This document shows, piece by piece, positions 3,614 through 60,027 of a stretch of DNA of 64,000 bases; position 1 is the stretch's first letter; each line of letters starts with the position of its first letter. The notes beneath the pieces were generated by a model. The model made no database searches. It saw only the letters and a program-made list of their open reading frames with translations, and was not told the DNA's origin. Location of the stretch: positions 21,066-85,065 of the forward strand of contig JAPLZF010000015.1 of the NCBI GenBank assembly GCA_026395175.1. The letters are read 5' to 3'. The position numbers and the translations under genes were made by a program. The DNA comes from Candidatus Staskawiczbacteria bacterium. Its GTDB lineage: Bacteria; Patescibacteriota; Minisyncoccia; Minisyncoccales; Staskawiczbacteraceae.

Positions 3614-3867
3614 AAAATAAAAACCGCCAGCTTTGACAGCGGCGGCGAAATTAATTTACTAATTTGAATCTTTTCCCAATCTTCTAAAAAGAAGCAGAAC
3701 TCCTCTAAGCAGCCACGTTGGCTGCTAATTCCATGCCAGATTTTTATATCTAATAACATAAACCACAAACGCCACTGGTTACAACGAGTGGCGCCATGGC
3801 GATTCCAGCCGGTTGCCCGACCGGGCGTATGCCGTTAGCTAACGGCAAGAGGAATTTACCCCTCTCA
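3614..3867 (-). ncRNA. Candidate structured leader or ncRNA between a promoter and an integrase-proximal terminator
   Basis: GC-rich with no ORF of 60 aa or more. Minus-strand reading shows serial hairpins: AGAGG/CCTCT, GCCGTT-AGCT-AACGGC, CCGGT/ACCGG, CGCCACT/AGTGGCG, AGCAGCCA/TGGCTGCT. It ends with CCGCC..GGCGG plus TTTTTATTTT right before the integrase ATG. Confidence 0.3.
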
Positions 3868-3873
3868 CCGCCT

Positions 3874-3900
3874 ATTATACCACTTTTGTAACCGTGTCAA
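3874..3900 (-). promoter_or_regulatory. Sigma70-like promoter (TTGACA-N15-TGgTATAAT) reading toward the integrase
   Basis: Minus strand reads GTTGACACGGTTACAAAAGTGGTATAATAGG. The -35 is at 3895-3900 and the -10 at 3874-3879, with an extended TG. Confidence 0.45.
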
Positions 3901-4073
3901 CGAAGTTTTGCGCTTCATGGCACGCCCTTGCGGGAAATGGTGAATTATTGATTAATTTTCTCCTATGCCTCATATTGCCAGACCCTGTTGAGGAAGTCAA
4001 GCCCAGTCGCTCCCTGCAATAAAAAACCCGTTGAAGTTATCTCGGGGTTACGCGAGCGATGTAAATCGCTTTG

Positions 4074-4973: not shown

Positions 4974-5097
4974 CGCTATTCTCCTTTCAAAGTTCACTTT
5001 CCACGATTCCCTCGTGAATTGGGTTACCGAAATTGGTAATACTTATCATTACCATAATTGCCTAATTATGTCAACGCAAGCGAAACCGCCTCAAAAA

Positions 5098-6072
5098 TCA
5101 AGCCACCGTAGCCACTTCTTTAAGATTATTATACAACTTTAATCTGGCAGATAAATCGTTCTCTTGCTTGCCTAAATTTTTACAATAATCCTCAGCCAGT
5201 TTTAAAAATCTGTTCAAACCGTATCTTTTTATTATTATAATTTCGAACAAGGTTAGGGTGTAAGAAACAACGAAAGAAAGATTATGACTAAACCCTTTTA
5301 TTTTATCATCTGGAGCATCGGTGATAAAAATTTCAACATCTTTGTAATTAGATTTTATTCTTAGCCTATATAAAAAATCCAAAATTGTTGTATACCCGGG
5401 ATCGTAATCCTTTTTTAATTTTTTCGCCATACCTAATTCTTTTTGCTTTTTATTTGTTTTTTGCGGCTTAAAATCTTCTATCATATTAATATGTTCAGCC
5501 TTTAAACAAGTAGAAATCATATCAACGGATCTAACTCCGCCACGACTTAAACTATTCACGAGTTTAACGTCGATAGGAAAATTGATAGGAGAAAATTCGT
5601 GCCTCAGCGTACCCTTATAGGCAAAAGACCATGGTTCAATCACGCCAATTTTCTCTACCAAAAAAGTGTTTAATTTCTTTATGCAACCGCTATGAGATTC
5701 TTGTGTTGATTTATCAATTAAAAATCCTAATGCTTCTCCGACTGAATACACAGCATAATAAGATTGTATGGGCTTCCAATGATTATTTATTTTTAATAGC
5801 TCTATATTTTCGTTATCGTTCATACTTGATAAAAATTCTGTATTCCACCCAATATATAAAAATCTTTTTATTATGTTTTCATCAATACTGCCTGATAATT
5901 TATTAATAACTAATTTTTCCCATAAAAAATTTACAAACTGATCCTTGCCGCCATATTTTCCTTCAATGAATCTCCTAAAACACTTAAAATAATTTTGGTA
6001 AACATCAAACTTAATTTCTGGTTCAGTCGACGGCACACCAAATTCTTTATAGTTATAAGTTATCGTATTCAT
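5098..6072 (-). CDS. Hypothetical protein (possible YaaC/Abi-like helical protein; unassigned)
   Basis: 324-aa soluble ORF next to the R-M locus. The only weak cue is the LYRLRIKSNYKD segment. No confident motif. Confidence 0.4.
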   Translation of the reverse strand: MNTITYNYKEFGVPSTEPEIKFDVYQNYFKCFRRFIEGKYGGKDQFVNFLWEKLVINKLSGSIDENIIKRFLYIGWNTEFLSSMNDNENIELLKINNHWKPIQSYYAVYSVGEALGFLIDKSTQESHSGCIKKLNTFLVEKIGVIEPWSFAYKGTLRHEFSPINFPIDVKLVNSLSRGGVRSVDMISTCLKAEHINMIEDFKPQKTNKKQKELGMAKKLKKDYDPGYTTILDFLYRLRIKSNYKDVEIFITDAPDDKIKGFSHNLSFVVSYTLTLFEIIIIKRYGLNRFLKLAEDYCKNLGKQENDLSARLKLYNNLKEVATVA

Positions 6073-7448: not shown

Positions 7449-10433
7449 TTAATTAATTTTTCTAAATAAATCACCTAGTTTCAACACGCTTCTATTTTCC
7501 AGCCAACTTATATCTTTTTTATCAAGTTGTGGGTTCTCTTGAATGAACAAATATCGCCATTCTTCTTTATTAGGGTCAGCTTCGGTAAGCATTGAGGCAT
7601 ATTTTTCTCCGCGTTCTTTCTTGGCTTTATCTCTATCATCCATCCTGCCCTTTACCTCAATTATATAATTTACAATCCTTCCACCTTCGTCGGTTTTTGC
7701 AATAAAATCTGGAAAATAATTTACATAAAATCCTTGCCACAAATATTCAAAGTTATAGCCAACGCCCTGCTGGTGATTATATAGCCACCCCGTAATATCT
7801 TCACATCCATCCAAAAGTTGTGCAACTCTTAATTCATCGTTGTTTCCCATACATTGTTTGTCGAATCCAGATTTTTCAGGATTTTCTAAAACATTTTCAA
7901 AAATTGCTTGATACGGCTCGACTCCTCGGCTTTCTTTTATTTCGTACTTATCAGTTGCTGGTTTTTCATGGGAACGCAAACTATTGATAAACTTAATCAA
8001 TTCCTGCTTAACCAAGGCCATCACATCATCATTGAAAACATTCTTTTTTACAATTTTATCTGTTTTCTCATCAACAAAATCAAGACGTAATGACATACCA
8101 ATTGGTAAAGCAAACGCTTTTTTCTCTAAAAATCTTTTTACCACATCTAAAACACGCAACTTATCAGAATATGATAAACGCAACTCGTTCAAAATTGGCT
8201 TAACATAACCAGAAATCAATAATCTATCTAAACCAAAGTAGCTTGATGATTGTTCAAATTCAAACTCAAGCCCTTTTTCAATATCCTTTTCAAACTGCGT
8301 TTTAATTTTTAGTTTATCAGCTGATTCTATCCACTTAAATTTTTTCGATAATTCTGGCAAATCAGATTCTTTAAAATTGTCGTGCCAGGTTTTAATATTT
8401 TCCACGAGGCCCAGAAATTTTACCATTCTAACATTTCTTTTTTTTCTTTCTTCAACGTCAGACAAAGGATTTACAACTGTATAAACCGCCGGTTCTTTTT
8501 CTCCAGCATCCACTTCGTCCATAATGTCATCGATCTCGTCGATGATGGCCTTAAAAGAAGGATGTTCAATGATATATAAATTTTCTGGTTTAGAAGAAAA
8601 CGCACCATCATCATCCATTTCTGGTTGATGCATTTTTCTTAAACCACGTCCCAAAGTTTGTTCTGCCAGTGTTCTTGAGTCACATGGCCGAAGGGGGACA
8701 ATTGTTTTAACGTTTCTCACATCCCAGCCTTCTTTAAGCATCAACACGGCCACAATAACATTGTAAGGGTTTTCAATGGATTCACCTTTTAATTGCGGAT
8801 CCTCAATATAATCCTTATCTATCGAGTGAACCAATTTTCTGATTTTCTCCCAATCCTTATCATTGTTTAATTCTTTTTGGCCGATATGAATTTGGATAAC
8901 AGTTGATTTTCCATTTTTAACAAAAAGCGTTTTCTTTGTCTCTACATCGTAAAATCCTTTTACGGGAAGATTATCATTTTCTAAATCTTTTCCTTCATCA
9001 TCAATTTCCTGATATTTCAAATAATTAAATATCTGTGTGGCTTCCTTTTTGTCATTACACAATATAAAAAGTATTTGCTTGCGCTTATCTCCCTCGTCAT
9101 CAAATAACTTTTGGTTTTCCTGCCATCGCTTTATACCCGTACGCAATAAATTTTCGTACATCTCCCAAGCGCATAATTTCTCTTTATTGATTATGCCTCG
9201 CGTTTCTTCACCCTCGTATACTTTTACTTTTTCTAGTTTTGGCATTTTAATAATGCCGTCCTTCTTCGCCTCTCCAAGAGAATATAAGTCAACTGTATGC
9301 TTAAATAAATCCATCCAACGAAATCTTATTTCTTCTTTATCTTTTTTTGTCCCTTTATGAGATCCTTTCTCTTCAAAAAGGGTAGCCGATAAATCAACCT
9401 GTAACGCAACGCCACATAAATCATCCACGTTTCTGATGGAACGGATCCAGCCAAGCTCTTCTTTTATCTGTTCTTCTTTAACGCCGATCTCTTTTAAATT
9501 TTTAATTTTCTTTTCGTATTCCTTGTGCTTTTCTTCATCGTGAACATGATGGGCTTCATCATTGATAATTAAAACATTTTTTGAATTTTTGAAAGAATCT
9601 ACGAGTGTACGCTTTTGATTTTCTAACTTTTTGGGCATCGCTGATTCAAAAAGCGACAATTCTTTGGCTAACTTTTGTGTTTTTACCTCAGAATCATTAT
9701 TTTCTGATTCGCGATAAAGTTTGTGAATGTTTGTTACTACAAGCGCGCCTTCTTCCGATTTCAGTTCGCTTGGCACGGTTGCTGGTGAATATACTTTTAA
9801 ATTCCAACATCTATCCAGTTCTTTCGGAATAATTGGATCGCTGTGAAAAATGTCCGGTCTGTCATCAGACGGCGCAAAATCTTCTAATAATCTATCTAAT
9901 ACAAAAAGATTCGGCGCAATGAGTAAAAAATGTTTTCCTATGCCTAAATGTTTCTCACCTTCAATTGCCGCGTTCAAATAACTCCAAGCAAAAATTAAAC
10001 TCATAATTTTTGTTTTACCCGAACCAGTTGCCAGTTGTGCGCCGAGTTTCGTCCACGAATCGCGTTGCGGAGTAATCATATCTATCCCAATTATTTTAGA
10101 AATGTCCTCGCGCCTGCGAATACCGCATACCTCATAAAGATAAATAAATGTCTCTATCGTCCGTCTTTGATGTGGCCAATATTTAAAACGAAAACTTTTT
10201 CCGTCTTTTCCTTTTAATTCATGCGGAAAAGACCGAAACCAATGGCGTAAAAGCAATTCCGTTGTTTCCGATATTTCTTTTTCAAATGACAATACCGGCT
10301 TATATTTTGCTGGTTCTTTAGGATATGGCACTTTAGCGCTTTGTAACGGAAATCCGCGCCACGCATCTACGCGTTCGCGGATTTTTTGGATAACTATTTT
10401 CTGCGGAGGTAATTTTTTGTCCTGCTCACTCAT
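7449..10433 (-). CDS. res: Type III restriction enzyme, Res subunit (SF2 helicase plus C-terminal endonuclease)
   Basis: 994 aa. Walker A is LATGSGKT and the DEAH box is IINDEAHHV. Helicase motif VI is QTLGRGLR. The C-terminal PD..EVK nuclease motif is FPDFIAK...YIIEVKG. It starts 1 nt after mod. Confidence 0.85.
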   Translation of the reverse strand: MSEQDKKLPPQKIVIQKIRERVDAWRGFPLQSAKVPYPKEPAKYKPVLSFEKEISETTELLLRHWFRSFPHELKGKDGKSFRFKYWPHQRRTIETFIYLYEVCGIRRREDISKIIGIDMITPQRDSWTKLGAQLATGSGKTKIMSLIFAWSYLNAAIEGEKHLGIGKHFLLIAPNLFVLDRLLEDFAPSDDRPDIFHSDPIIPKELDRCWNLKVYSPATVPSELKSEEGALVVTNIHKLYRESENNDSEVKTQKLAKELSLFESAMPKKLENQKRTLVDSFKNSKNVLIINDEAHHVHDEEKHKEYEKKIKNLKEIGVKEEQIKEELGWIRSIRNVDDLCGVALQVDLSATLFEEKGSHKGTKKDKEEIRFRWMDLFKHTVDLYSLGEAKKDGIIKMPKLEKVKVYEGEETRGIINKEKLCAWEMYENLLRTGIKRWQENQKLFDDEGDKRKQILFILCNDKKEATQIFNYLKYQEIDDEGKDLENDNLPVKGFYDVETKKTLFVKNGKSTVIQIHIGQKELNNDKDWEKIRKLVHSIDKDYIEDPQLKGESIENPYNVIVAVLMLKEGWDVRNVKTIVPLRPCDSRTLAEQTLGRGLRKMHQPEMDDDGAFSSKPENLYIIEHPSFKAIIDEIDDIMDEVDAGEKEPAVYTVVNPLSDVEERKKRNVRMVKFLGLVENIKTWHDNFKESDLPELSKKFKWIESADKLKIKTQFEKDIEKGLEFEFEQSSSYFGLDRLLISGYVKPILNELRLSYSDKLRVLDVVKRFLEKKAFALPIGMSLRLDFVDEKTDKIVKKNVFNDDVMALVKQELIKFINSLRSHEKPATDKYEIKESRGVEPYQAIFENVLENPEKSGFDKQCMGNNDELRVAQLLDGCEDITGWLYNHQQGVGYNFEYLWQGFYVNYFPDFIAKTDEGGRIVNYIIEVKGRMDDRDKAKKERGEKYASMLTEADPNKEEWRYLFIQENPQLDKKDISWLENRSVLKLGDLFRKIN

Positions 10434-17598: not shown

Positions 17599-17604
17599 GG
17601 GTTT

Positions 17605-17760
17605 TTAATGTCCTCTTATCGCAGAAACTATGGCGTAGAAAACAATCAGCCCAATGCCTATGCCGATGATTATCGTGAGTAGCGGAGTTAAATCAGTAAT
17701 CAAACCCGTGATGTTCGACATCATGGTGTTTGTCATATCGGAAGTCCAAGTTAAAAACAT
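17605..17760 (-). CDS. Coat-protein-like small hydrophobic protein, paralog 3 (51 aa)
   Basis: Own translation: MFLTWTSDMTNTMMSNITGLITDLTPLLTIIIGIGIGLIVFYAIVSAIRGH. It shares the pattern N(I/V)(T/S)G.I.DL.P.LTI..G..IG with the 17777-17950 ORF. Below the ORF-track length cutoff. Confidence 0.45.
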   Translation of the reverse strand: MFLTWTSDMTNTMMSNITGLITDLTPLLTIIIGIGIGLIVFYAIVSAIRGH

Positions 17761-17776
17761 AGAAGTATAATTTTAA

Positions 17777-17950
17777 TCATTGTGGCCGGTCATGTCGCCA
17801 ACTGATAACTGCGGAAATCACTGCCTCTAGAATAAAAAATCCGATTACGACGCCAAGCAATATCGTCAAAAAAGGCCATAGATCATTAATGATCCCGCTG
17901 ATGTTTGCCGTGACATTGCTGAAAGCCGTTGTTGGTAGCGAAACAATCAT
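17777..17950 (-). CDS. Coat-protein-like small hydrophobic protein, paralog 2 (57 aa)
   Basis: Start moved to MIVSLPTTAFSNVTANISGIINDLWPFLTILLGVVIGFFILEAVISAVISWRHDRPQ. The upstream 15 codons in the ORF track only translate a GC hairpin. Confidence 0.45.
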   Translation of the reverse strand: MIVSLPTTAFSNVTANISGIINDLWPFLTILLGVVIGFFILEAVISAVISWRHDRPQ

Positions 17951-17964
17951 AGTTTGTTGCCGGC

Positions 17965-17992
17965 GCCGGGCCCGCCTCTCAACGGGCCCGGC
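17965..17992 (-). terminator. Strong GC hairpin just after the first coat-like gene
   Basis: GCCGGGCCCG-cctctcaa-CGGGCCCGGC, a perfect 10-bp stem, lies between the stop at 18005 and the next start at 17950. No U-run follows, so it may act as an attenuator or processing site instead. Confidence 0.4.
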
Positions 17993-18004
17993 CACCGTTC
18001 GCTT

Positions 18005-18238
18005 TTAGTGTTTAGGAATCAAAGCGATAACCTTGCGGATAATATAGAAGCCCATTGGGATACCGATTGCCAAGGCAACCAACACCCAGACATCTGTCAT
18101 TATCTGGCTGGCGTTTCCAGTCAAATCCGCAACTGCGGTTGAGGGCAGAGTGATTAACTCACCGGCCGCAAAGGTTGAAAGGGCTAACCCAAACAAACCT
18201 GTTGCGACTGCACCTGCACCGACCGCAAACTTTTTCAT
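18005..18238 (-). CDS. Major-coat-protein-like small protein, paralog 1 (signal peptide plus ~53-aa mature part)
   Basis: From the internal Met: MKKFAVGAGAVATGLFGLALSTFA / AGELITLPSTAVADLTGNASQIMTDVWVLVALAIGIPMGFYIIRKVIALIPKH. This gives a signal peptide, an amphipathic N-terminus, one TM and a basic C-terminus, like the inovirus g8p layout. Confidence 0.5.
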   Translation of the reverse strand: MKKFAVGAGAVATGLFGLALSTFAAGELITLPSTAVADLTGNASQIMTDVWVLVALAIGIPMGFYIIRKVIALIPKH

Positions 18239-18320
18239 TGTGGAAAACATTAAACTACGAGGACAATGATTTTTAATTTTTCGACCTTTATACAACAAAA
18301 ATTTGTTGTTACTTTGTGGT

Positions 18321-33955: not shown

Positions 33956-36900
33956 TTAGCGTTTAATTGTAGTTATACTTTGGTAATGGTCTGATGTATA
34001 ATACATATCGCCGTTTTTAGTGCCCACTAACATTCTTTCTGCTGTATTGGATGGTGCTCCAGAATTATTTACCGGATATTCTAAATATTGATTCCCGTTA
34101 TTGTAATTTAATTGTGAATGACCTTCGGCATTTCGATAAAATTCAGTTAATCCTGTGTTTTTATTAATTTTAGGTCCTATCTTTCCAGATTCTATCGCGT
34201 CAACAGTCGGCTGAAGATTAACCTTGCCTTGATATATACTCTTTCCAAACTGTTTTACGCTAGTGTCTATTTCTAAACTATTCTCTGCCGACAATGTCTT
34301 ACCTAACCCGCCTAATAATTTAGCTGTTGTTCCAGCTCCAATCCATCCACCCAACATTTCTCCAGAATTGTAATCAAACTGGTCTTTACTAATCTTCCCA
34401 GAAACACAATCTTGATAGTTTTTATATGATCCATAAACTGTCGCCGCACCTGCCATAGAAACCACGCCCACTCCAATACCTGTAGCAATTGCAGCAGGAA
34501 TCTCTATTGGTAAGGCTGTGATAGCACCAGCAACTAATACAGTTACAGCACCTGCATACACAACACCCCTTGCAGATCCTTGCACAAAAGTTTTCCAGCT
34601 TTGTCCTGTCGGATCGCTTAATGTTATCGGGTTGTTGCGTGAATAGCTGTAATAATTGAGTTGTTGCGGGTCGGCGAGAAACTTTTCGGGGTTGTCTCGT
34701 GATGCTGAATCTTCGGAGATAAATCTTGCCAGCGCGGAGTTGTAGTATCTTGCGTTGAGGTAATTTAATCCTGTGTCGGCGTCAAACTCCTGTCCGATGT
34801 ATTTTCTCTGTTCTGTGAAAGAACTTGTTTTGTTGTCTATGCGGATTGCGCCGAATGGGAAATAATCCATTGTTTCTGCCAGCGCACCAGCCGAGTCAGT
34901 CATCACGCTGGAAGAATTGAGCGAGTCGGTTGCGTTGTAGTAAATCTTGGCAACTGCTCCTGTTCCATTTATTGTAGCAATATTTTGGTTATTTGCAAAG
35001 ATGTGCTTTACAATAGATGTTGGGTTTTGGGTGGTTGGTGTTAGATATGAAGCGTTATAGTTTTGTGTTGGGTAATATGTCGAGCTCGCAAGCGAAGATC
35101 CTAAACCTGGCGAAGGATTAGTTGTAATTTTAATTCTCTGGCCGTTTGCGTCGTAGGCGTAAGTTGTGGTTGTGTTGGCAGAAATGTTTGTGGCAGAAAC
35201 AAGCCGGTTGTTGTAATCATAAGTGTACGAATTTATTCCGTCGCTTGTGATATTTCCATTTTGGTCGTACTGAAAATTATTAGTTCCCGGGTCGCCGATG
35301 GTAAAAGTTTTTGGCGAATTAGAAAGCAAAAAGTTTGCTCCGCCGGCGGAATCTATGCCGTAAATGTAAATCGTGTGCGGTTTGCCGTCTTGGTATTTTG
35401 CCGGAATTGAATAAATAAAGCGGTGGTTTCCGGTGTAAGCCGGAAAAACTTTTGTAACATCTGGGCTTGCGGTGTTGGCGGAAACTCGAGAAAGAAATGT
35501 TCCTGTTCCTATTGCGCCGTCTATGTAAATATCAACAGAAATTGATGTGTTTGGAACATCTGGGTCGGCTGTCCAGCCATAAGCTATCCAGCCGGCATAA
35601 GTGGTGCTCATAACGCCGTCAATGTATCCAACAGGAACGCGGTTTGAAGCCAAAATTATTTTGGCAATCGGCTCGGCAGATTTGCCGACCACAACTGTTT
35701 GCGAATTAGTTTTGGTTGCAGAAGTTTTTGTGACAGCGTCTGGATTTGCGTAAGAAGAACCTGCGTTATTTAAATTTCCTTTGTAATCGTAAGTTGTTGT
35801 TGTGTCGTTTAATTTTTGAGACAGCATATTTCCCAAAGCGTCGTAAGTAAAACTCTGAGTGTATGCTTGCTGGCCCGAGGCAACATTTGTTGCAGTTGAC
35901 GAAAGCAAGCGATACAAATCGTCATAAGTGTAAGCAACTGTCTTTTTAGAATCAGTGGCTGAATTGTCAACAAACTGAATAATATTGCCTACGTTGTCAT
36001 AGATATAAGCAAGATTTTGCAGTTGCGTTCCTGTGGCGGTGTTTGTAATTTTGTTTGCCAGCCGGTAAAGCTTTGCAGAATCGTAAGTGTTGGTGGAAAT
36101 TGCGCCATTGGCAAAACTTTCTGTAGTAATTTGCTCAAGCGGCGAATAATCAAAGTTTGAGATTACATTAGCAAACGCTGTGTCAGTTGATTCTTTTTTT
36201 TGTATCTGGTCAAGAAGACCGGCTGGATTGTAAATGTTTTTAATTTGCGAATTGTCAGGATTTATAATTAAAATTTGGTTTCCTTGGCGGTCAAAATTGT
36301 ACTGGGTTATGAAAGTTTTTGTGTCAATTATTTTTGTGTCTTTGGTTATGTTTCCCAAAGATGAATATTCATATTGCTCGGTTTGCTGAGCAGAAACGCT
36401 TTTGCACAAAAGTCCTTTTCCGTTTGGACAAGCGTCGTAAATAAAAGTTGCCTCCACGCCGGCTTTGCCGGCATAATCTTCGCTGGTTTTTCTGTTTAGA
36501 GCGTCAAAATTATAATTAATTGTCTGATTTTTCGCGTCAGTCAAACTGATTAAATTTCCAACATTGTCATAAGTGTAATTCCAAACACCAAAAACAGAAT
36601 CCGTAGGATTGTGCAAATCTTCTGCGATTAATTTTCTGTCCAAACCGTCGTAAGAAAAATTTCTGACATTTCCCAAAGCATCTGTGATGTTGATTAAGTC
36701 AGAAAGGCCGTTATACGAATAATAAGTGGAATAAATATTTGAAGCATTGTGTTCGCCAACTTGAATTAAATTCCCATAAGCGTCTTCATAAAAGTCTTTT
36801 GTTTTTCCGTTGGCATCGGTAACGGAAGTTTTCCAATTGTTGTAAGCTGTGATTGTCGCGCCAACAGAATTTATTGATGACACGGCGCGGTTTAATGCAT

Positions 36901-39900
36901 CATATGCGTAGCTTGTGTAAAGCGTAAAATCTTGGGTTGGCAAAGTCCTGCCAAAGCTGTTTGAAAAATATGGCAAAGATTCTTTCTGCAATTGTCCAAG
37001 ATTATTGTAAATATAATCTTTTGTCTCAAAATTATTATTCTCCGCAGATTTTTTTGTTTGGATAATTCTGCCTAATCCATCGTAATAATTATAACTATTA
37101 ACAGCCGTAGAAGAATCTAAATAATCAGTTTGCTGAACGCTCAAAGCACCAGAAGTGTCGGTGTAAATATAAAATGTTTTTTGAACCAATGTTGCCGGAT
37201 TTGCTTGGTCGGGCTGTTCTGTTTTTAAAATTCTTCCGAAGCCGTCGTAAGTGTTTTTAAAAACATTTCCGTTGGCATCTGTGGTTTGCGCAATTTTTCC
37301 GTTGGCGTAATTGTAAATATATTGCGTTGTCTGGCTTAAAGCATTGGTAATTATTGCCGGATAAAGATTATAGCTGTCGTAAGAAAAATTAGTTGCGTTT
37401 CCATTGGCATCTTTGCTTTGAGAAACAAGCCCATAATTATTGTAAACTTTTTGCGAGCTGGCGTAATTTGAATTATTTATCCAATCCTCTTCTTTTGTCT
37501 GGTTTCCCAAACTGACGCTGCCCAATGGCAGATTGTCGTAATAATATCGGCTTTCTTTGATTTTATTATTATTTTGTCCGCTGACAATTATGCCAGACGG
37601 ATAACCAACAACATTGCCACCGGCAGCGTAACTGATGTTAGTGATATATTTGTCATTGCCAACATCTGTGAAGCTTCCGTCATTATTTGCCAAAACTTGT
37701 CCCCATTCTATTTTTTGAGTTTGGTTGCCGTTGCTATTGTCATAGCTATAACTTTCTGTTTTGTCTTTGTGATTTATTGTTCCGTCATAATCTTCTTTTG
37801 TTGCTTGAATTAATTTTGCAAATCCGGCGCTGCCTGCCAAGTTATAACTATCCCATTTGTTTATATTCACCTGATAAAGTTTGCCGGAATTGTCATATTG
37901 CTCTGTCCTGTAAGCTTTTCCTATTTTAAAATAATTGTCCTGATATTGCCCGCGGGATGAATCGTTTCCTGAGCCGGTATTGTAAAAAGTTTTTGTCACA
38001 TTTTGCGCGCTATCAATTTGGTCTATTTCCGCAAAACCGGCAAGATTCCTGTCGAAAGGCCCTTTGTAATAATATGTCCCGCCAAAATACTGGTAATTTT
38101 CCGAAGAAACAATATTATTTACAGGATCTGTGGCATTAATTTTAGAAACAGTTTGAACCGACAAAGGCAATTTTGGATTGGGCAAATTGCCCAAACTATT
38201 GTTGTAAAGAGTTGACGGGGCATAAGAAATATTTATTGTTTCTCCGGTGTTTAACGTAATTGAATTCAACAAGTCATTGCCGGCTGGACTGAGAACCAAG
38301 TTGCTTGTTTGCTGAAAATATATTTCATTAGGGTTGTCGCCGGAAAAATTTCCGAGCGCAAATAATTTGCCGGCGTATGCGCTGCCTCCAACAGAAAAAT
38401 TATAAGGCAAGCTGACATCAAAAGGCTCAGCCCAGCCTTTGCCTGTGTTTAGAAATACTCTTTGAGCTGTAACCGTTTGGCCTGGCAGCGGCTGATATGG
38501 AATGCTGTCAACAACTTGCGTGTTGCTTGTGGCTTGAACCAAATCCACCAAGCCGTCGCCGTTGTAATCAATTACCCTTACTCCGAGTTCATGATTGCCA
38601 CCATAACCGGCGCCTTGGATATAATCACGAAATGAAAATAATGTTGGCGGAGCATAGTTGTCGCTTAAATAAAAATTTCCCAAACCGTCGCCCAGCCAAG
38701 TTTTTTGGACAGTTTCGTCATATGGATAATTATTTACTTCCTGATACTGATATTGCCCAATTTCATGATAACTGGCAATTATATCCAAAATTCCATCGCC
38801 ATTTACATCTGTGGAAATTATTCCGGCTACCGAATTGCCGTCTGCGTTTGGAAAATAAATTTTGTTGGATCCGGTTGAATTATAAGTGTATTCCGGCGGA
38901 CTATAACTTTTTTTCACAAAACTACTGCCGGTGTTTGAATAGTAAGCAGAATCTACGCTGGTGCCGGCAAAAAAATCCGGCAAGCCGTCGCCATTTATAT
39001 CAAAAAAATTAGCGTTGGGAAAAGATCCGTTAGTGCAAATTGAACCAATGCCGGGAATTTTAAACTGCCACGAAAAATCTTGGTTCCAGCCCGAACCTGT
39101 ATTTATAAATATTGCCGGTCCTTGGCAAGGAATAATTAAATCCGGCAAGCCGTCGCCGTTTATATCTGTAAAAAAATGAGTTGTTTGTAGAAAAGATGGA
39201 GAAGCAGAAACAAATATTGCCGGCGGCTGGTAAGATGGAGATTCTGTCCATCCGTTTTTTCCATTATTCAAGTAAGCTTTCTGCAGGACAAAACCGGACG
39301 ATGAATAAGAAATTAAAACATCGGTTAATCCGTCGCCGTTTAAATCCGCAAATTCGGCGTAGTCGGAAAATTGCTTAATGTCTGAAGGCAAGTCATAAGT
39401 TGTTTTGCCCGCGTATAAATCATTGGCATAATTAAAACTTGTTTTTGGCTTTGCAATTATATTCCCGCCGGCGGTTTTTCCTGATTCTGTTATGCTTTGA
39501 AGAATTGAACGGCTGCCGTTGCTTCCTGTCTCATAAGCTAAATCATATTTATTAACCCAATTTCCGCTTGCAGAAGCTGTTATTTGGCTTATGCGATAAT
39601 TAGTTGTTGCCAAAAATCCAGCGCCGTAGCTTGCGGTGTTGTCGGCTCTTGCCTCGGTTGCAAAACTAACTTCAAAAATTCCGCCGGTGTTTCCGTTGCC
39701 GGTGTATCTTATTGCCAAAGGATAAATTTGACCCGCGTCTTTAAAATAAGAATAAGAAATATAATTATTGTTGGCGTCTCTCACTTCCTGCAGCATCCAT
39801 TTGTAAACATTGCCAGGATTTTGCGGGTCGTTTTGCTGAGACGCGCTGTTATAACCAAACTTGTATTGCGTGCCGTCTTTGGCAACCACCAGCCATTGAT

Positions 39901-40510
39901 TGTTTGAAAAAGTATATTTGTTAAAACTGCCGTTTTCTGTTCTGGCAACAAAAGATGAACTATCAACAGTTGAAAGTTCACCGTCAAGCGAAGAATAAAA
40001 ATAATTTGAACTATACAGCGAATCTGTTCCGGTTTTATTCAACCGCTGAATATAAGGAATGTTCAGCTCCCAACCGTAGCCAAAAATGCCGGCTTGCTCA
40101 TTTTGACTGCTGTTATACGACAATGCAATATCGGGCTGTAAATTATTCCTGCCCGGAGGAATGGAAATTGGATAACTATAATTCAAAGCTCCTGTGTTTT
40201 TGTCTATTTCCGGCAGTTTTTGAGTCATCGAAGAAACAGAAGCTGGCGGTTGCGCTGGATTGCTCTGGTCTAAAGCTTTGCTCTCTGCAGTTTGGTCGGA
40301 CGGCGTAACTGCTTGGATGTTACTTTGCAAAGCATCGGCTGGCACCCCATCAGCCATCGGCGTGGTTGTGTCTAATGCCGGCACCGGCAAGACTGGCGTA
40401 TCTGAAGTGTCAGAAACAAAAACATCGTCTGATGTTTCGGCAAACGCAGGGGCAATTGGCGTTATTAAAAATGCAAAGATTAAAAAAGTTGCTGTAATCT
40501 TATAAGCCAT
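33956..40510 (-). CDS. Rhs/YD-repeat polymorphic toxin (SpvB-like N-terminus, FG-GAP/VCBS repeats, YD shell, barnase-like RNase C-terminus)
   Basis: The start is set to MAYKITATFLIFAFLITPIAPAFA (signal peptide). The SpvB-like motif is ALNYSYPISIPPGRNNLQPDIALSYNS..GYGWELN. There are four D.NGDG(L)(T/P/V)D repeats and dozens of YD repeats (Y.YD..G). The core end is DYFPFG..RYYNSALARF. A hydrophobic pre-toxin segment follows. The C-terminus FYRNAEGHS..YLEYPV..ERMLVG..GDMYYTSDHYQSITTIKR parallels barnase ..FSNREGKLP..WREADI..DRILYS..LIYKTTDHYQTFTKIR. Confidence 0.9.
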   Translation of the reverse strand: MAYKITATFLIFAFLITPIAPAFAETSDDVFVSDTSDTPVLPVPALDTTTPMADGVPADALQSNIQAVTPSDQTAESKALDQSNPAQPPASVSSMTQKLPEIDKNTGALNYSYPISIPPGRNNLQPDIALSYNSSQNEQAGIFGYGWELNIPYIQRLNKTGTDSLYSSNYFYSSLDGELSTVDSSSFVARTENGSFNKYTFSNNQWLVVAKDGTQYKFGYNSASQQNDPQNPGNVYKWMLQEVRDANNNYISYSYFKDAGQIYPLAIRYTGNGNTGGIFEVSFATEARADNTASYGAGFLATTNYRISQITASASGNWVNKYDLAYETGSNGSRSILQSITESGKTAGGNIIAKPKTSFNYANDLYAGKTTYDLPSDIKQFSDYAEFADLNGDGLTDVLISYSSSGFVLQKAYLNNGKNGWTESPSYQPPAIFVSASPSFLQTTHFFTDINGDGLPDLIIPCQGPAIFINTGSGWNQDFSWQFKIPGIGSICTNGSFPNANFFDINGDGLPDFFAGTSVDSAYYSNTGSSFVKKSYSPPEYTYNSTGSNKIYFPNADGNSVAGIISTDVNGDGILDIIASYHEIGQYQYQEVNNYPYDETVQKTWLGDGLGNFYLSDNYAPPTLFSFRDYIQGAGYGGNHELGVRVIDYNGDGLVDLVQATSNTQVVDSIPYQPLPGQTVTAQRVFLNTGKGWAEPFDVSLPYNFSVGGSAYAGKLFALGNFSGDNPNEIYFQQTSNLVLSPAGNDLLNSITLNTGETINISYAPSTLYNNSLGNLPNPKLPLSVQTVSKINATDPVNNIVSSENYQYFGGTYYYKGPFDRNLAGFAEIDQIDSAQNVTKTFYNTGSGNDSSRGQYQDNYFKIGKAYRTEQYDNSGKLYQVNINKWDSYNLAGSAGFAKLIQATKEDYDGTINHKDKTESYSYDNSNGNQTQKIEWGQVLANNDGSFTDVGNDKYITNISYAAGGNVVGYPSGIIVSGQNNNKIKESRYYYDNLPLGSVSLGNQTKEEDWINNSNYASSQKVYNNYGLVSQSKDANGNATNFSYDSYNLYPAIITNALSQTTQYIYNYANGKIAQTTDANGNVFKNTYDGFGRILKTEQPDQANPATLVQKTFYIYTDTSGALSVQQTDYLDSSTAVNSYNYYDGLGRIIQTKKSAENNNFETKDYIYNNLGQLQKESLPYFSNSFGRTLPTQDFTLYTSYAYDALNRAVSSINSVGATITAYNNWKTSVTDANGKTKDFYEDAYGNLIQVGEHNASNIYSTYYSYNGLSDLINITDALGNVRNFSYDGLDRKLIAEDLHNPTDSVFGVWNYTYDNVGNLISLTDAKNQTINYNFDALNRKTSEDYAGKAGVEATFIYDACPNGKGLLCKSVSAQQTEQYEYSSLGNITKDTKIIDTKTFITQYNFDRQGNQILIINPDNSQIKNIYNPAGLLDQIQKKESTDTAFANVISNFDYSPLEQITTESFANGAISTNTYDSAKLYRLANKITNTATGTQLQNLAYIYDNVGNIIQFVDNSATDSKKTVAYTYDDLYRLLSSTATNVASGQQAYTQSFTYDALGNMLSQKLNDTTTTYDYKGNLNNAGSSYANPDAVTKTSATKTNSQTVVVGKSAEPIAKIILASNRVPVGYIDGVMSTTYAGWIAYGWTADPDVPNTSISVDIYIDGAIGTGTFLSRVSANTASPDVTKVFPAYTGNHRFIYSIPAKYQDGKPHTIYIYGIDSAGGANFLLSNSPKTFTIGDPGTNNFQYDQNGNITSDGINSYTYDYNNRLVSATNISANTTTTYAYDANGQRIKITTNPSPGLGSSLASSTYYPTQNYNASYLTPTTQNPTSIVKHIFANNQNIATINGTGAVAKIYYNATDSLNSSSVMTDSAGALAETMDYFPFGAIRIDNKTSSFTEQRKYIGQEFDADTGLNYLNARYYNSALARFISEDSASRDNPEKFLADPQQLNYYSYSRNNPITLSDPTGQSWKTFVQGSARGVVYAGAVTVLVAGAITALPIEIPAAIATGIGVGVVSMAGAATVYGSYKNYQDCVSGKISKDQFDYNSGEMLGGWIGAGTTAKLLGGLGKTLSAENSLEIDTSVKQFGKSIYQGKVNLQPTVDAIESGKIGPKINKNTGLTEFYRNAEGHSQLNYNNGNQYLEYPVNNSGAPSNTAERMLVGTKNGDMYYTSDHYQSITTIKR
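34721..34794. repeat. 74-bp segment identical to 33193-33266
   Basis: See 33193-33266. Confidence 0.85.
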
Positions 40511-40517
40511 ATGTTTG

Positions 40518-40546
40518 ATAATGGCACAATCGTCTTGCAATGTCAA
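40518..40546 (-). promoter_or_regulatory. Promoter of the large Rhs gene (TTGACA-N17-CATTAT), apparently leaderless
   Basis: The minus strand reads TTGACATTGCAAGACGATTGTGCCATTATCAAACATATG. The -10 ends 7 nt before the ATG at 40510. Confidence 0.5.
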
Positions 40547-40564
40547 ATATTTTAAAAAACCTCT

Positions 40565-40589
40565 CAACTCGGGTTAATTGGTTAGAAAT
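40565..40589. repeat. 25-nt conserved box, copy 2 (upstream of the Rhs promoter)
   Basis: CAACTCGGGTTAATTGGTTAGAAAT is identical to 31186-31210. Confidence 0.8.
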
Positions 40590-40612
40590 TACGCATGACT
40601 ATATTTACGCTT

Positions 40613-41155
40613 CTATTTTATATTACAACTTTCAACTTGGGCTGTTTTTATGTCCTCGTTTGTTTGAGTAATTTTAATGCTATCAAGCATTCTTTTAATA
40701 AGAGTTTCTTGGGCTGAGGAAAAATAAAGAAAATTATAGTATGCAAACCTGACTATACGATTACCCATAGGAATATCATAAAAATCAACTGACTTATAAT
40801 CTCCAGAACCATTAAGATGATTAATGCTGGCGTTATAACCGTTAAAAGTAGTATCTGACCAATCAGGTTCTAAGGGATCCAAATAAGAAAAACCTACGCT
40901 AAAAAAATTATTTTTATCACTCATTTTTATCTTCATCGACAGTTCATTTTTGGTAGAAGTGTTTATAAATGAATTAGGATAATACACCTGGAACATCGCA
41001 TTTCCGCTTTTTACTTGTAGACAATTAGATAATTTTTCTTGTTGCTGGATAACAGGATTTTTTTTATGTTGAGGAAAAAAAATAAACAAACATCCTACAA
41101 ATAATAACATTGCCACTATTAAAAATAAAAATCTAAATATTTTTTGGTCAAGCAT
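40613..41155 (-). CDS. Membrane-anchored immunity-protein candidate for the CHAP toxin
   Basis: 180 aa with an N-terminal TM (FLFLIVAMLLFVGCLFIFF). It starts 7 nt after the stop of the Rhs-CHAP gene. Confidence 0.4.
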   Translation of the reverse strand: MLDQKIFRFLFLIVAMLLFVGCLFIFFPQHKKNPVIQQQEKLSNCLQVKSGNAMFQVYYPNSFINTSTKNELSMKIKMSDKNNFFSVGFSYLDPLEPDWSDTTFNGYNASINHLNGSGDYKSVDFYDIPMGNRIVRFAYYNFLYFSSAQETLIKRMLDSIKITQTNEDIKTAQVESCNIK

Positions 41156-41162
41156 ATATTCT

Positions 41163-42509
41163 TTATTTACTAATTGATTTTTTTGGTTGCAGAGCGCCTA
41201 AGCCGGGCCAATTAAAAGTCGCCGGAATGGATTGCTGGCTCGAGTAGCGGGTCCAAGAATCAACGTGAATTGGGCTATTTTTTGAACGGTCAGAAACAGT
41301 GTAACCACCATCTTTGTTTTGAGTAAAATTTTGAGCGAACAATGCCTTATCAGGTCTTGCATTCTGTTCTAATGTATAAATTGTCCCGCCATTATTATAC
41401 GCATTAGCTACCACTTCTACAATTGTTCCCACATGACCATAGCTCTGGTCATCGCTTGTCCATGTCATAAGGTCATTTTCTTGAGGCAACACAGAACTGC
41501 CATTTTTATAAACCGCCATCGAACCGGAATTTTTATTATTCTCCATCACTCTATTGACTTCCTTTTGATTGCCATAATTAATTGCACCCTCTTTTCCTAT
41601 TCCAGAAATGTTTATATCATATTGAGCCTTATAAAATTTTTGAACAAAAGTAGTACATTGCTGAAAATTATTTTCATCAAGAGGTCCGTATTCTCCACGG
41701 CTATTTACGTTCACACCTCTATAACTGGCTATTGCTTCCCCATAACTATAACCATAAATCCCTCCTAATGGTAAATACGGCTGTATTTCTGAAACTTTCT
41801 TGCCACTTGGATCGCTCAAAGTTATTGGATTATTCTGAGCGTAGCTATAAAGATTCAGCTGTTGCGGGTCGGCAAGGAACTTTTCAGGGTTATCTCTTGA
41901 TACTGGGTCTTCTGACAAAAACTTTGCTATACTGCTATTGTAATACCTTGCATTGAGATAGTCCAACCCTGTGGATGAATCGAAGTCCTGACCGAGGAAT
42001 TTCTTTTGTTGCGGGTTTTGACCTGTTGCTGTGTTGTCTAATCTGATTTGCCCGAAAGGAAAATAGTCAATTGTTTCTGCGGGTTTGTTGTCTATCGATA
42101 GAACATTTGTAATACTGCCTTGGTGGTCTGTTAAGACCGGCTGGAGAACAGCTGTTTGACCGGTTCCGCTGATTGTGGCAACCAATGTTCCGTTGGCATT
42201 AACATACTTTGTGATTTTTTCTGGAGATTTGTTGCCTTTGGAGTCGGTTGTATATGAAACGCTGTAATCTTTTGAGGGGTAATAGGTGGTTTCCGAACTG
42301 CCATCTGAATTTTGGACAACCATTTTTATTCGCTGACCTTGCGGGTCGTATGAGTAAGTTGTGACTGCGCCGGTGGATGTGTTTGTGGCAGAGGTAAGGC
42401 GATTGTTATAGTCATAGGTGTAAGTGGTGGCGAGCGCGGGCGCTATTGGCTGCAATGCAAAAATGAGAGCAAACGCCGCCACAATCATTTTGCGCAAAAC
42501 TTTACCCAT
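41163..42509 (-). CDS. Short secreted Rhs-repeat protein with a C-terminal CHAP amidase/peptidase toxin domain
   Basis: 448 aa with a signal peptide. YTYDYNNRLTSATN..YSYDPQGQRIK are YD repeats. The core end is DYFPFG...RYYNSSIAKFLSEDP. The CHAP-like Cys is in QQCTTFVQKFY and the His in YGHVGTIVEV. Confidence 0.75.
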   Translation of the reverse strand: MGKVLRKMIVAAFALIFALQPIAPALATTYTYDYNNRLTSATNTSTGAVTTYSYDPQGQRIKMVVQNSDGSSETTYYPSKDYSVSYTTDSKGNKSPEKITKYVNANGTLVATISGTGQTAVLQPVLTDHQGSITNVLSIDNKPAETIDYFPFGQIRLDNTATGQNPQQKKFLGQDFDSSTGLDYLNARYYNSSIAKFLSEDPVSRDNPEKFLADPQQLNLYSYAQNNPITLSDPSGKKVSEIQPYLPLGGIYGYSYGEAIASYRGVNVNSRGEYGPLDENNFQQCTTFVQKFYKAQYDINISGIGKEGAINYGNQKEVNRVMENNKNSGSMAVYKNGSSVLPQENDLMTWTSDDQSYGHVGTIVEVVANAYNNGGTIYTLEQNARPDKALFAQNFTQNKDGGYTVSDRSKNSPIHVDSWTRYSSQQSIPATFNWPGLGALQPKKSISK

Positions 42510-56752: not shown

Positions 56753-56776
56753 TTTTTTTATTTTTAATAATACTTG

Positions 56777-56848
56777 TGGGCGCGGAAGGAATCGGACCTT
56801 CGACCTCTGTCTTATCAGGACAGCGTTCTACCACTGAACTACGCGCCC
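56777..56848 (-). tRNA. tRNA-Ile (anticodon GAU)
   Basis: The minus strand reads GGGCGCG-TA-GTTC-AGTGGTA-GAAC-G-CTGTC-CTGATAA-GACAG-AGGTC-GAAGG-TCCGATT-CCTTC-CGCGCCC-A. This is a canonical cloverleaf with anticodon loop CU-GAU-AA. CCA is not encoded. Confidence 0.9.
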
Positions 56849-56894
56849 ATATTATTTAAGATTTTACCAAAAAAATCGACACATTGCAAATGCA

Positions 56895-57333
56895 AACAAA
56901 AAAAGAAGCGGGTCTGTATTTGGTTTCAGACCCGCCTATGAGATGTGTTTTCGGGACATAACCAGCCTAAGCTGGTTGGCTAGCAAGACCGCCCGTTGCT
57001 GTCGGCCTCCTGTTTCTTTTTGGCATTACAGGCTGTCGCTGTCATCTCTTTGCGGGATATCGTCCCGTGGCGAAAAAAAGTGGAAAAGAGCAAAACGGAA
57101 CAGTTGGCAGAGGAGATTTGTATGCAAGGTTGTTCGGCACCAGAGAACTGGGGGAGGCTCTCTATACCTCGCACGCATTTACCTATCCCGCGATAGGCTC
57201 GTAGGGCATTGCACCCTAACGAAATCTCACAATCGAAGCTGGACGATTACACTATGATACGTACAGAGCATTCTCCTCGCGTAATAGATTATGCTGCTGT
57301 GCGTTGTGGGAGTGCTCTGCCAACTGTCCGAAT
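56895..57333 (-). ncRNA. Unclassified GC-rich structured RNA candidate (~380-nt core plus terminator)
   Basis: It has its own promoter (57340-57368) and terminator (GCGGGTCTG..CAGACCCGC plus T-run, 56895-56935). The 5' UUCGGAC (57326-57332) can pair with 3' GUCCCGAA (56950-56957). A perfect 13-bp long-range helix joins 57315-57327 and 57100-57112. There are several local hairpins, such as AACCAGC-uuag-GCUGGUU. No convincing ORF or SD is present. Confidence 0.45.
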
Positions 57334-57339
57334 GGTTTG

Positions 57340-57368
57340 ATGATAGCAAAGTTAACAGATTATGTCAA
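57340..57368 (-). promoter_or_regulatory. Promoter TTGACA-N17-TATCAT directly after the gatA stop
   Basis: The minus strand reads CTATTGACATAATCTGTTAACTTTGCTATCATCAAACC. Confidence 0.5.
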
Positions 57369-59225: not shown

Positions 59226-59254
59226 TTGACATAAACAATTTTATATCCTATTAT
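59226..59254 (+). promoter_or_regulatory. Plus-strand promoter TTGACA-N17-TATTAT reading into the GC-rich cassette
   Basis: TTGACATAAACAATTTTATATCCTATTAT. The -35 is at 59226-59231 and the -10 at 59249-59254. Confidence 0.5.
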
Positions 59255-59334
59255 TATTTATCACGAAGTTTTAACCGAACCTTCACAACTGGGCGCTACT
59301 GCCCTGCGAAAGCTAAACGTAGCAGGAGGAACAT

Positions 59335-59616
59335 ATGGACGACAAGCCGTACATTCCAAATTGGATGAAGAAGTACATGCCGGGCTTTTGCATGGCAACG
59401 ATAATCCTTGGCGCTGTAACAGTGTGTTGCCTTGTCGGCGTAATGGAGTACCAGATGAGCCAGCCAAGCGGGCTTCGACAGATGCCTCCGGTGTGGCTTC
59501 TGTGCATGTGCGGGGTCGCATTACTCTTCGCTATGGTTACCCTAACCGCCATTGCATTCTGCGAGTTTCGCCGGTACAAGATGCGGGACACGACATCCAC
59601 AAACGCTTCTCTGTGA
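59335..59616 (+). CDS. Small two-TM membrane protein (93 aa) in the GC-rich cassette
   Basis: AGGAGG lies 5 nt upstream of the ATG. Two hydrophobic helices (FCMATIILGAVTVCCLVGV and VWLLCMCGVALLFAMVTLTAIAF) have basic flanks. Confidence 0.45.
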   Translation: MDDKPYIPNWMKKYMPGFCMATIILGAVTVCCLVGVMEYQMSQPSGLRQMPPVWLLCMCGVALLFAMVTLTAIAFCEFRRYKMRDTTSTNASL

Positions 59617-59660
59617 ATTTAACCCGTCGTGAGGTTAGCGGCACAACAAAGGAGACAAGG

Positions 59661-59849
59661 ATGAAGCAAAAGCATCAACACACGCTCAAAGACGGAAAAG
59701 GGCAACGTTCATGCGGGGTAACACTTTGCGGTAATATAAACCCCAGCGTCACGGTCCGGTGTAATCTGACACAAAAACACCATGGTCCATGTCGGAATAC
59801 TCTTTACCCCGAAGCCGGAACGTGGACAAACAGGAGATATCCTGACTGA
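59661..59849 (+). CDS. Small Cys/His-rich protein (62 aa) in the GC-rich cassette
   Basis: AAGGAG lies 7 nt upstream. The protein is MKQKHQHTLKDGKGQRSCGVTLCGNINPSVTVRCNLTQKHHGPCRN..., whose C..C / C..C spacing suggests a zinc ribbon. It is the internal start of ORF-track entry 59361-59849. Confidence 0.35.
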   Translation: MKQKHQHTLKDGKGQRSCGVTLCGNINPSVTVRCNLTQKHHGPCRNTLYPEAGTWTNRRYPD

Positions 59850-59879
59850 CATCGGGTTCTCGCTTCGGCGAGGACAATA

Positions 59880-59921
59880 GGCTGTCGTGCGAATTCATTT
59901 TCGCTCGACGGCTCTTTTTTT
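59880..59921 (+). terminator. Rho-independent terminator closing the GC-rich cassette
   Basis: Imperfect stem GGCTGTCGTGCGAA..TTCGCTCGACGGCTC followed by T7. Confidence 0.5.
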
Positions 59922-60027
59922 GCATTTTTTCAAGTTAACATTATATTAACCTAATTTCTTTTGGTTATCATATGATAACCAAATAAAAATATCCCGCGAA
60001 ACGGGATACCTTATTATTTAAAATTGG

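Follow-up and report, generated by a model that had tools for sequence, protein, structure and literature searches.

A candidate structured RNA gene of undescribed family beside tRNA-Ile(GAU) in Candidatus Staskawiczbacteria, with a conserved duplex frame around variable interiors

What does the guanine–cytosine (GC)-rich interval between gatA and the isoleucine transfer RNA gene, tRNA-Ile(GAU), specify in the genome of a Candidatus Staskawiczbacteria bacterium? The interval lies in a 64,000-nucleotide (nt) stretch of contig JAPLZF010000015.1 (hereafter the window, whose own numbering is used throughout). A reading made from the sequence alone (the sequence-only reading) had proposed that it specifies an independent structured RNA of unknown class, about 380–440 nts long, at a place where gatB would be expected. 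The first half of this proposal has held: the unit possesses its own promoter and terminator, has homologues in 11 contigs, and shows compensatory changes in three helices. The second half has not, as gatB is not the next gene after gatCA in any relative examined. Because gatB follows gatA in none of these genomes, its absence is the norm of the lineage, and a gatB remnant was rejected as the identity of the interval on the same grounds. Our favored explanation, held with moderate confidence and drawn from comparative sequence, is that the interval is a separately transcribed, noncoding, structured RNA gene of an undescribed family, restricted to a subclade and linked to tRNA-Ile(GAU), whose function would reside in a conserved frame of duplexes. 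Full-text literature searches found no description of this RNA.

The case for a separate transcription unit rests on its boundaries. Directly 3′ of the gatA stop codon, as first noted in the sequence-only reading, lies the promoter TTGACA-N17-TATCAT, which agrees with the consensus at 11 of 12 positions and bears a TG ahead of the −10 element; transcription would start near 57333. Elements of the form TTGACA/TTGACT-N17-TAnnAT likewise sit upstream of the RNA in six homologous loci (L178, L179, L181, L187, L003, and L195). The body that follows, about 435 nts long, has a GC content of 46–51%, versus 38% across the window, and is closed by an intrinsic terminator that can be read in the sequence and is present in the minimum free energy (MFE) fold: a GC-rich hairpin of 9–10 base pairs (bp) followed by UUCUUUUUUU. 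The automatic terminator scan overlooked this hairpin because its loop measures 10 nts and the scan maximum is 8. In L194 and L186, the terminator stem carries compensatory changes. Beyond the terminator, tRNA-Ile has a promoter of its own, an arrangement repeated in L178, L179, L181, and L187; in L195, a TTGCAT…TAAAAT element similar to the tRNA promoter lies 3′ of the terminator.

Homologues were sought with nhmmer and blastn searches of the RNA against 80 reference-genome gatA loci, after which the contigs encoding the closest GatA proteins were fetched. These closest relatives of the window GatA belong to Candidatus Staskawiczbacteria (Patescibacteria, or candidate phyla radiation, CPR). 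The sole find among the 80 loci was L003, through a 17-nt identity, where reading of the locus brought out a related GC-rich RNA. In total, 13 domains occur on 11 distinct contigs: the window, L003 (two in tandem), L178, L179/L180, L181, L186 (two in tandem), L187, L188/L189, L190/L191, L194, and L195. tRNA-Ile(GAU) adjoins the RNA in all members. Since the pair lies ~4.4 kb from gatA in L181, after ftsX and tRNA-Gln, it is tRNA-Ile, rather than gatA, with which the RNA is associated. In L188 and L190, RNA and tRNA lie on opposite strands. On the gatA tree, the RNA occurs in one clade plus L003, with scattered absences; in the sample taken, only a subclade of Candidatus Staskawiczbacteria carries it. 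A covariance model (R1) run against 29 Patescibacteria loci found no new member, its match in L006 being an unrelated long palindrome, and three matches to GTGAGATTTCG-N(102–132)-ATCTCCTCTG in metagenome contigs were rejected, all lying in unrelated, apparently coding sequence.

Because whole-RNA MAFFT alignments were unreliable in the interior, members were aligned at their conserved blocks, giving block-wise mini-alignments. The order of elements in the family is promoter, a boxA-like element (in some members), P0, P1, a variable interior, a pyrimidine-rich tail, a 3′ domain (in some members), and the terminator. In the relatives, P0 is a 20-bp leader hairpin whose arms, AACUGUCCGGAAAAUUGUCC / GGACAAUUUUCCGGACAGUU, are joined by a variable loop. 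It is lost from the window copy, whose promoter sits where the P0 5′ arm would be, and the remnant ATCTGTTAACT is recognizable against L003. P1 is the hallmark of the family and vindicates the perfect 13-bp helix reported earlier: in the window, GACAGUUGGCAGAG (57328–57315) pairs perfectly with CUCUGCCAACUGUU (57112–57099) over 14 bp, a helix whose chance occurrence in 450 nts we estimate at ~4 × 10⁻⁴, and it covaries in the homologues. Its core is GGCAGAG / CUCUGCC, its 3′ strand runs on as AACUGUCC, and the duplex conserved across the family is GGACAGUUGGCAGAG / CUCUGCCAACUGUYC; the outer half of the 5′ strand doubles as the P0 3′ arm in the relatives. P2, GAGAU / AUCUC, has its 3′ strand abutting that of P1, and its 5′ side forms part of a GUGAGAU motif common to the window, L186a, L187, L194, and L003b (GUGAGAC in L181). 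In seven domains, a four-way junction is predicted with P2 stacked on P1. Separately, the base of P0, CUGUCC…GGACAG (e.g., L186 4121–4180), has the sequence of the tRNA-Ile anticodon stem, CUGUC / GACAG (window 56803–56820), which may be a coincidence or a trace of common origin; L179 shows no covariation between the two.

Support for this frame comes from pairs changed on both sides, for which the sequence-only reading had advised looking in related genomes and which were found in P0, P1, and P2 alike. Counted on true nucleotides, in a small and closely related sample with many invariant pairs, P0 with the P1 core has 95% of its cells paired and 10 pairs changed on both sides, a result equaled by 0 of 500 shuffles. 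P1 with its extension (and upper P0) has 92% paired and 11 such pairs (0 of 500 shuffles), and P2 has 92% paired and three (8 of 500). As a control, sliding the 3′ partner of P0 and P1 by one to three columns left only 25–53% of cells pairing. In L179 alone, four consecutive P0 pairs are compensatorily replaced. G·U cells number 21 and A·C cells 7, an excess that identifies the gatA strand as the one that folds and speaks for structure in RNA rather than in DNA. Since three helices are kept by compensatory changes, the RNA is very likely functional.

The sequence-only reading had described a ~200-nt domain closed by the P1 helix. The closing helix stands; the RNA as a whole is modular, composed of the P1 domain and a separate 3′ domain, rather than one 200-nt domain with a tail. 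The pyrimidine-rich tail of the family contains ACAAUUU, and the window, L194, and L186 have a 3′ domain in common, with 64% mean column identity and a conserved hairpin, GGUYUUGCUARCC.

The AACUGUCC extension can pair with the P0 3′ arm, so that P0 and the long P1 cannot form at once. The two alternative folds lie within 0.2–4.6 kcal/mol of each other in six members (L187, L190, and L195 are left out of these energies, as a 1-nt deletion puts their index out of register). Being exclusive and near-isoenergetic, the two helices probably allow the RNA to switch between two folds, and such competition would account for the unusual strictness with which three strands are conserved together; lacking P0, the window copy would be fixed in the long-P1 fold. 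The competition thus backed by comparative data concerns the relatives only, the window having lost P0, and differs from that proposed earlier, in which CAGAGCA (57319–57313) would pair with UGCUCUG (57270–57264) in competition with P1. Those complements do exist in the sequence, but UGCUCUG pairs locally in the fold and the homologues contain no conserved equivalent. A proposed pairing of the 5′ end, UUCGGAC (57332–57326), with GUCCCGAA (56957–56950) fared no better: it needs a bulged C, is absent from both the MFE and centroid folds, and lacks a counterpart in L194 and L186. A sequence of 450 nts should, by our estimate, contain several 7-nt complements by chance alone.

A pair of exclusive, near-isoenergetic helices, a terminator between the RNA and the tRNA, and the constant adjacency of the two could also betoken a cis-acting leader, a switch or attenuator governing read-through into tRNA-Ile, or else a 3′ untranslated region element of gatCA. 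The tRNA, however, has its own promoter and lies on the opposite strand in L188 and L190, and in L181 the RNA is away from gatA altogether. The switching helices lie 100–250 nts from the terminator with no visible overlap, the switch itself is not conserved (the window is without P0 and L179 without the extension), and no ligand-type conserved core is visible. The RNA also has no Rfam match to a T-box or other riboswitch leader. A cis-regulatory role is therefore unlikely in our judgment, and an RNA gene acting through its duplex frame remains the preferred reading.

Enclosed by this frame are interiors of 54 nts (L190) to 256 nts (L181), with 45–55% GC in genomes of 35–40% GC. The GUGAGAU motif excepted, no sequence similarity above shuffled controls was found among them. 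In seven domains (the window, L178, L181, L186a, L187, L194, and L003b), the order is PA (usually beginning YACUG), the small PA2, the junction GU, and P2, PA and PA2 being variable arms of the predicted four-way junction; no common interior motif was found in the remaining six. L003 and L186 each carry one domain of either kind in tandem. The whole window RNA folds better than its shuffles (z = −4.6; 0 of 100 as stable), and across the 12 domains tested z runs from −4.6 to −7.3 against mononucleotide shuffles. Between the window and its closest relative, L195 (GatA 91% identical), the interiors measure 202 and 102 nts, respectively, and are unrelated (z = 0.2); the fourfold-degenerate sites of gatA are 64% identical, where chance gives 34%. 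Either insertion, deletion, or replacement renews the interiors faster than synonymous sites change, or the two genomes kept different units of an ancestral two-unit array. As it is the duplex frame that is conserved, the frame is presumably the functional part, and the arms behave like expansion segments.

An observation of its own concerns the S-adenosylmethionine (SAM) riboswitch upstream of metK in L178, which is apparently interrupted at 3781–4047 by an insert of ~267 nts closed by the inverted repeat GTCATGAAACAAGATT / AATCTTGTATCATGAC. The aptamer gives a subthreshold Rfam match (29.7 bits; gathering score 44.4), mostly 3′ of the insert, and the insert matches no known intron or RNA family. 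As the insert is similar in kind to the interiors of the RNA, this hints that inserts closed by a helix are a general habit of these genomes.

Conserved inverted repeats around an unrelated interior are also what would be expected of a DNA-level element, whether nonautonomous and mobile, akin to a miniature inverted-repeat transposable element (MITE) or palindrome-associated, or a recombination site, with the RNA fold as a by-product. The direct repeat AACUGUCC that occurs at either end of the unit, the tandem units in L003 and L186, and the differing presence and absence among close relatives accord with this idea. Yet no second copy was found within the 64-kb window and each contig has one locus, which is not the pattern of a MITE, and the interiors are unrelated. 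The site beside tRNA-Ile is constant across genomes, promoter and terminator are conserved, and the G·U versus A·C asymmetry is strand specific. Apart from a GIY-YIG open reading frame (ORF) in L186, the vicinity has no gene for a transposase, integrase, or reverse transcriptase. Neither does the locus resemble a retron or diversity-generating retroelement, as none of the locus gene tables lists a reverse transcriptase domain (the neighbors are gatCA, metK, TspO, a lactamase_B protein, and similar genes), nor an integron attC site: GTTGGCA and TGCCAAC each fit 5 of 7 positions of the core sites GTTRRRY / RYYYAAC, and no integrase is found among the neighboring genes. Blastn against phage and plasmid collections found no match to the RNA; 93 matches to GGACAGTTGGCAGAG in viral contigs were set aside as chance or coding, none having the partner strand. 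All told, a DNA-level element is quite improbable.

If the interval is an RNA gene, is it a known one in disguise? With Rfam 15, the whole window at gathering score yields tRNA-Ile alone, and the RNA region at E ≤ 10 under permissive filters yields only a chance, terminator-like match to suhB. Ten member loci gave tRNAs and two SAM riboswitches and nothing else, and the complete homologue L194 at E ≤ 10 gave only subthreshold matches of microRNA hairpins to P0. Since the tRNA and SAM models do find their targets in homologous loci, Rfam models work in this clade. One such identity would be a strongly diverged housekeeping RNA (RNase P RNA, transfer-messenger RNA [tmRNA], 6S RNA, or signal recognition particle RNA), for which the size range is right and none of which was found in the window. 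The sequence-only reading had failed to find RNase P and tmRNA signatures, and the searches bear it out: RNase P covariance models do not match the RNA at gathering score or at E ≤ 10, ARAGORN reports tRNA-Ile and no tmRNA in the window, and neither ARAGORN nor Rfam matches tmRNA in the RNA. For 6S RNA there is no Rfam match, and the predicted folds are multibranched junctions instead of rods. Moreover, the interior is wholly unconserved, unlike functional cores, and the RNA is absent in L192, all of which renders a disguised housekeeping RNA very improbable.

Still less credible is that the interval encodes one or more small proteins. Gene callers do annotate the homologous regions of L178 and L195 with ORFs (80 and 83 residues), but the ORFs in the window region are short and none is preceded by a Shine–Dalgarno sequence, as had been noted at the outset. 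A conserved coding pattern, named in the sequence-only reading as the outcome that would speak for a protein, did not emerge: no ORF is conserved among the homologues, and the peptide matches, 9–38 residues long, are scattered over several frames and both strands; the simplest reading is that they reflect the conserved nucleotide frame.

The setting of the RNA brings to mind a different ancestry. In L178, L181, L187, and L003, a boxA-like AGYTCTTTAA (RNA AGYUCUUUAA), so called by likeness to the boxA consensus, follows the promoter at the same position, a few tens of nts downstream. On account of this element, the strong promoter, and the position beside a classical spacer tRNA, the unit may be related in origin to the leader and spacer of a ribosomal RNA (rRNA) operon. 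Indeed, the order of promoter, boxA-like element, hairpin, long-range stem, spacer, and tRNA-Ile(GAU) mirrors the established layout of such operons, and Patescibacteria commonly have unlinked rRNA genes (bioRxiv 10.1101/705046); given both, descent from an rRNA-operon leader would be reasonable. A starker version holds that the locus is a mere relic of a broken-up operon, in which promoter, boxA, and 16S processing stem were left behind by the spacer tRNA-Ile and are functionless beyond perhaps promoter activity, and L192, which keeps the tRNA without the RNA, fits such decay. Against it, compensatory changes maintain P1, P2, and P0, and the interiors keep ~50% GC and strong folding within streamlined genomes of 35–40% GC. 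The terminator and separate tRNA promoter 3′ of the RNA, and the inverted tRNA of L188 and L190, are equally at odds with a relic. No rRNA fragment is detectable in the RNA region (Rfam, E ≤ 10), and no rRNA genes were found in any of the fetched loci. A functionless relic is thus a doubtful explanation.

How, then, might a functional RNA gene of this design work? The product would be a stable RNA from a stable-RNA type of unit, as the consensus promoter and the boxA-like element of four relatives suggest. Its site of action would be the duplex, comprising 14–16 bp of P1 and 5–7 bp of P2, plus the 20-bp P0 in the relatives. Most plausibly, a double-strand-specific factor would recognize or process the RNA at this frame, binding or cutting it as RNase III does the stems that bracket rRNA. 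Conceivably, though this is a speculative and rather improbable extension, the frame is a holder for quickly exchanged, GC-rich, self-folding inserts, that is, a cassette system at the RNA level, maybe tied to CPR rRNA insertions, or a processing site that releases fast-evolving small RNAs. If true, either would represent a new kind of element, beyond an orphan RNA motif.

Several points weigh against a functional RNA gene acting through its duplexes. The 13 domains come from one narrow clade only, with helices so conserved that most pairs never vary, and we built the mini-alignments ourselves around the proposed helices. The RNA is dispensable or movable, since in L192/L193 gatA is followed directly by tRNA-Ile without it. 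Neither alternative fold is indispensable either, because the window copy does without P0 and L179 without the P1 extension, and no boxA-like element is present in the window, L179, L186, or L188. Differential loss from an ancestral two-unit array, rather than fast turnover, could explain why the interiors of the window and L195 are unrelated, as L003 and L186 carry both domain types. The processing site and its RNase III-like factor, finally, are purely inferred.

Features of the transcription unit and its neighbors in the window; all lie on the minus strand, where the order is mreB, a GC-rich gap, gatC, gatA, the RNA, tRNA-Ile(GAU), and metK
Feature	Coordinates	Strand	Description	Basis
mreB	61101–60028	−		window gene order
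gatC	59089–58799	−		window gene order
gatA	58799–57372	−		window gene order
RNA unit	57368–56898	−	promoter to terminator	sequence and fold
Promoter	57340..57368	−	−35 TTGACA 57368–57363, 17-nt spacer, −10 TATCAT 57345–57340	
P1 5′ strand	57315..57329	−	GGACAGUUGGCAGAG	sequence, self-match, covariation
Arms PA and PA2	57231..57314	−	PA: CACU 57314–57311 with AGUG 57253–57250, long hairpin; PA2: AAUCG 57248–57244 with CGAUU 57235–57231	constrained folds
P2 5′ strand	57222..57230	−	GAGAUUU 57228–57222 after conserved junction GU	comparison, pair counts
Subdomain within P2	57120..57221	−	branched, GC-rich, sequence not conserved	folds, comparison
P2 and P1 3′ strands	57097..57119	−	AAAUCUC 57119–57113 (P2) abutting CUCUGCC 57112–57106 (P1) and extension AACUGUUCC 57105–57097	
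3′ domain	56937..57096	−	pyrimidine-rich tail, hairpins, conserved hairpin GGUCUUGCUAGCC (56990–56978)	homology
Intrinsic terminator	56898..56936	−	stem GGCGGGUCUG (56936–56927) / CAGACCCGC (56916–56908), then UUCUUUUUUU	sequence and MFE fold
Separate tRNA-Ile promoter	56861..56889	−	TTGCAA-N17-TAAAAT	promoter scan
tRNA-Ile(GAU)	56848–56776 (56776..56848)	−	constant neighbor of the RNA	ARAGORN and Rfam
metK	56752–55694	−	3′ of tRNA-Ile	

The surroundings of tRNA-Ile hold observations of their own. In the window, ~24 nts (56753–56776) separate the tRNA from metK and contain no SAM riboswitch; in L187 and L192, a SAM-I riboswitch above gathering score lies upstream of metK. L178 contains a 28-nt direct repeat of the tRNA-Ile 3′ end plus downstream bases (GATTCCTTCCACGCCCACTAAAAAAGTT), at 3569–3596 and 3665–3692 and flanking ~70 nts, a pattern suggestive of a scar left by an element that integrated there. 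A partial, tRNA-Ile-like pseudo-copy sits just upstream of the real gene in L003 (10195–10260), and the GIY-YIG ORF of L186, 66 residues long, lies between RNA and tRNA (4943–5143); together, these two suggest a rearrangement-prone neighborhood.

A second GC-rich stretch (up to 55%) without a gene on the gatC strand occupies the mreB–gatC gap (window 59230–59960), and shows no sequence relationship with the tRNA-Ile-linked RNA. L179, L186, L188, L183, and L192 conserve the flanks of this stretch while the middle varies, and the gap is absent in L178, L181, L187, and L194. On the strand opposite gatC, the window carries a 93-residue ORF (59335–59616, +) with a strong AGGAGG Shine–Dalgarno sequence, two hydrophobic stretches resembling membrane helices, and no Pfam match, and a terminator-like hairpin lies near 59885–59925. 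L179 and L192 have different opposite-strand ATG starts after strong Shine–Dalgarno sequences (start sites only), and gene calls place small opposite-strand ORFs in L183, L186, and L188. The gap looks like a variable small-protein site.

Farther afield, three tandem ORFs of ~50–80 residues at 17600–18300 (−), with a C-terminal hydrophobic helix and a …DLxPxL…G..IG… pattern, resemble pilin-like or filamentous-phage coat-like proteins; two overlapping ORFs that were tested have no Pfam match. A 2203-residue protein at 33956–42509 (−) combines SpvB, TcdB, FG-GAP, and RHS repeats with a C-terminal ribonuclease domain, and with a second protein nearby that has RHS and CHAP domains it makes up a locus of the polymorphic-toxin type in a CPR genome. 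The L006 palindrome CCACCGTACTACAAATTCTCAAGCTTGAGAATTTGTAGTACGGTGG (7940–7990) has a variant at 8551–8600; each is accompanied by the same upstream direct repeat, and the two flank ~560 nts that may hold a small ORF. The pair is unrelated to the RNA but similar in its layout of conserved hairpins and variable content.

Members of the CPR have tiny genomes and almost no experimentally studied noncoding RNAs. That such a genome retains an RNA of 300–450 nts under a consensus promoter is the broader significance of the locus. A conserved frame with unrelated interiors offers a tractable case for the gain and loss of RNA expansion segments; it bears on the fate of rRNA-operon control elements once the rRNA genes of the CPR became unlinked, and it equips wider searches with a covariance model and a locus marker, the position upstream of tRNA-Ile(GAU).

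How does the RNA compare with known systems? With rRNA operon leaders and spacers, it shares the strong promoter, a duplex between sequences 54–256 nts apart, and tRNA-Ile(GAU) immediately downstream; four relatives add the boxA-like element. In contrast to them, its stem encloses not an rRNA gene but a short, variable core of 54–256 nts without similarity to rRNA, a terminator and a tRNA promoter intervene, the tRNA is invertible, and the window copy is without the boxA-like element. The succession of promoter, boxA-like element, and conserved hairpin (P0) may also parallel the phage lambda nut antitermination leader; P0, however, is a 20-bp stem with a variable loop, whereas the boxB hairpin is small, and no N-like protein is known here. 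The interiors recall rRNA intervening sequences and expansion segments (those of 23S helix-25 and helix-45, and the CPR rRNA insertions), which are also sporadic folded inserts at the tip of a conserved helix that change fast in length and sequence; here the host is not rRNA, and excision is only putative. The RNA also resembles, as a class, the large orphan RNAs OLE, GOLLD, ROOL, raiA, and HEARO, which came to light as GC-rich intergenic regions of AT-rich genomes: GC-rich, free of ORFs, running from promoter to terminator, and marked by covariation. Those RNAs possess extensive conserved cores, whereas this one, which matches nothing in Rfam, conserves mainly three helices and few unpaired nucleotides.

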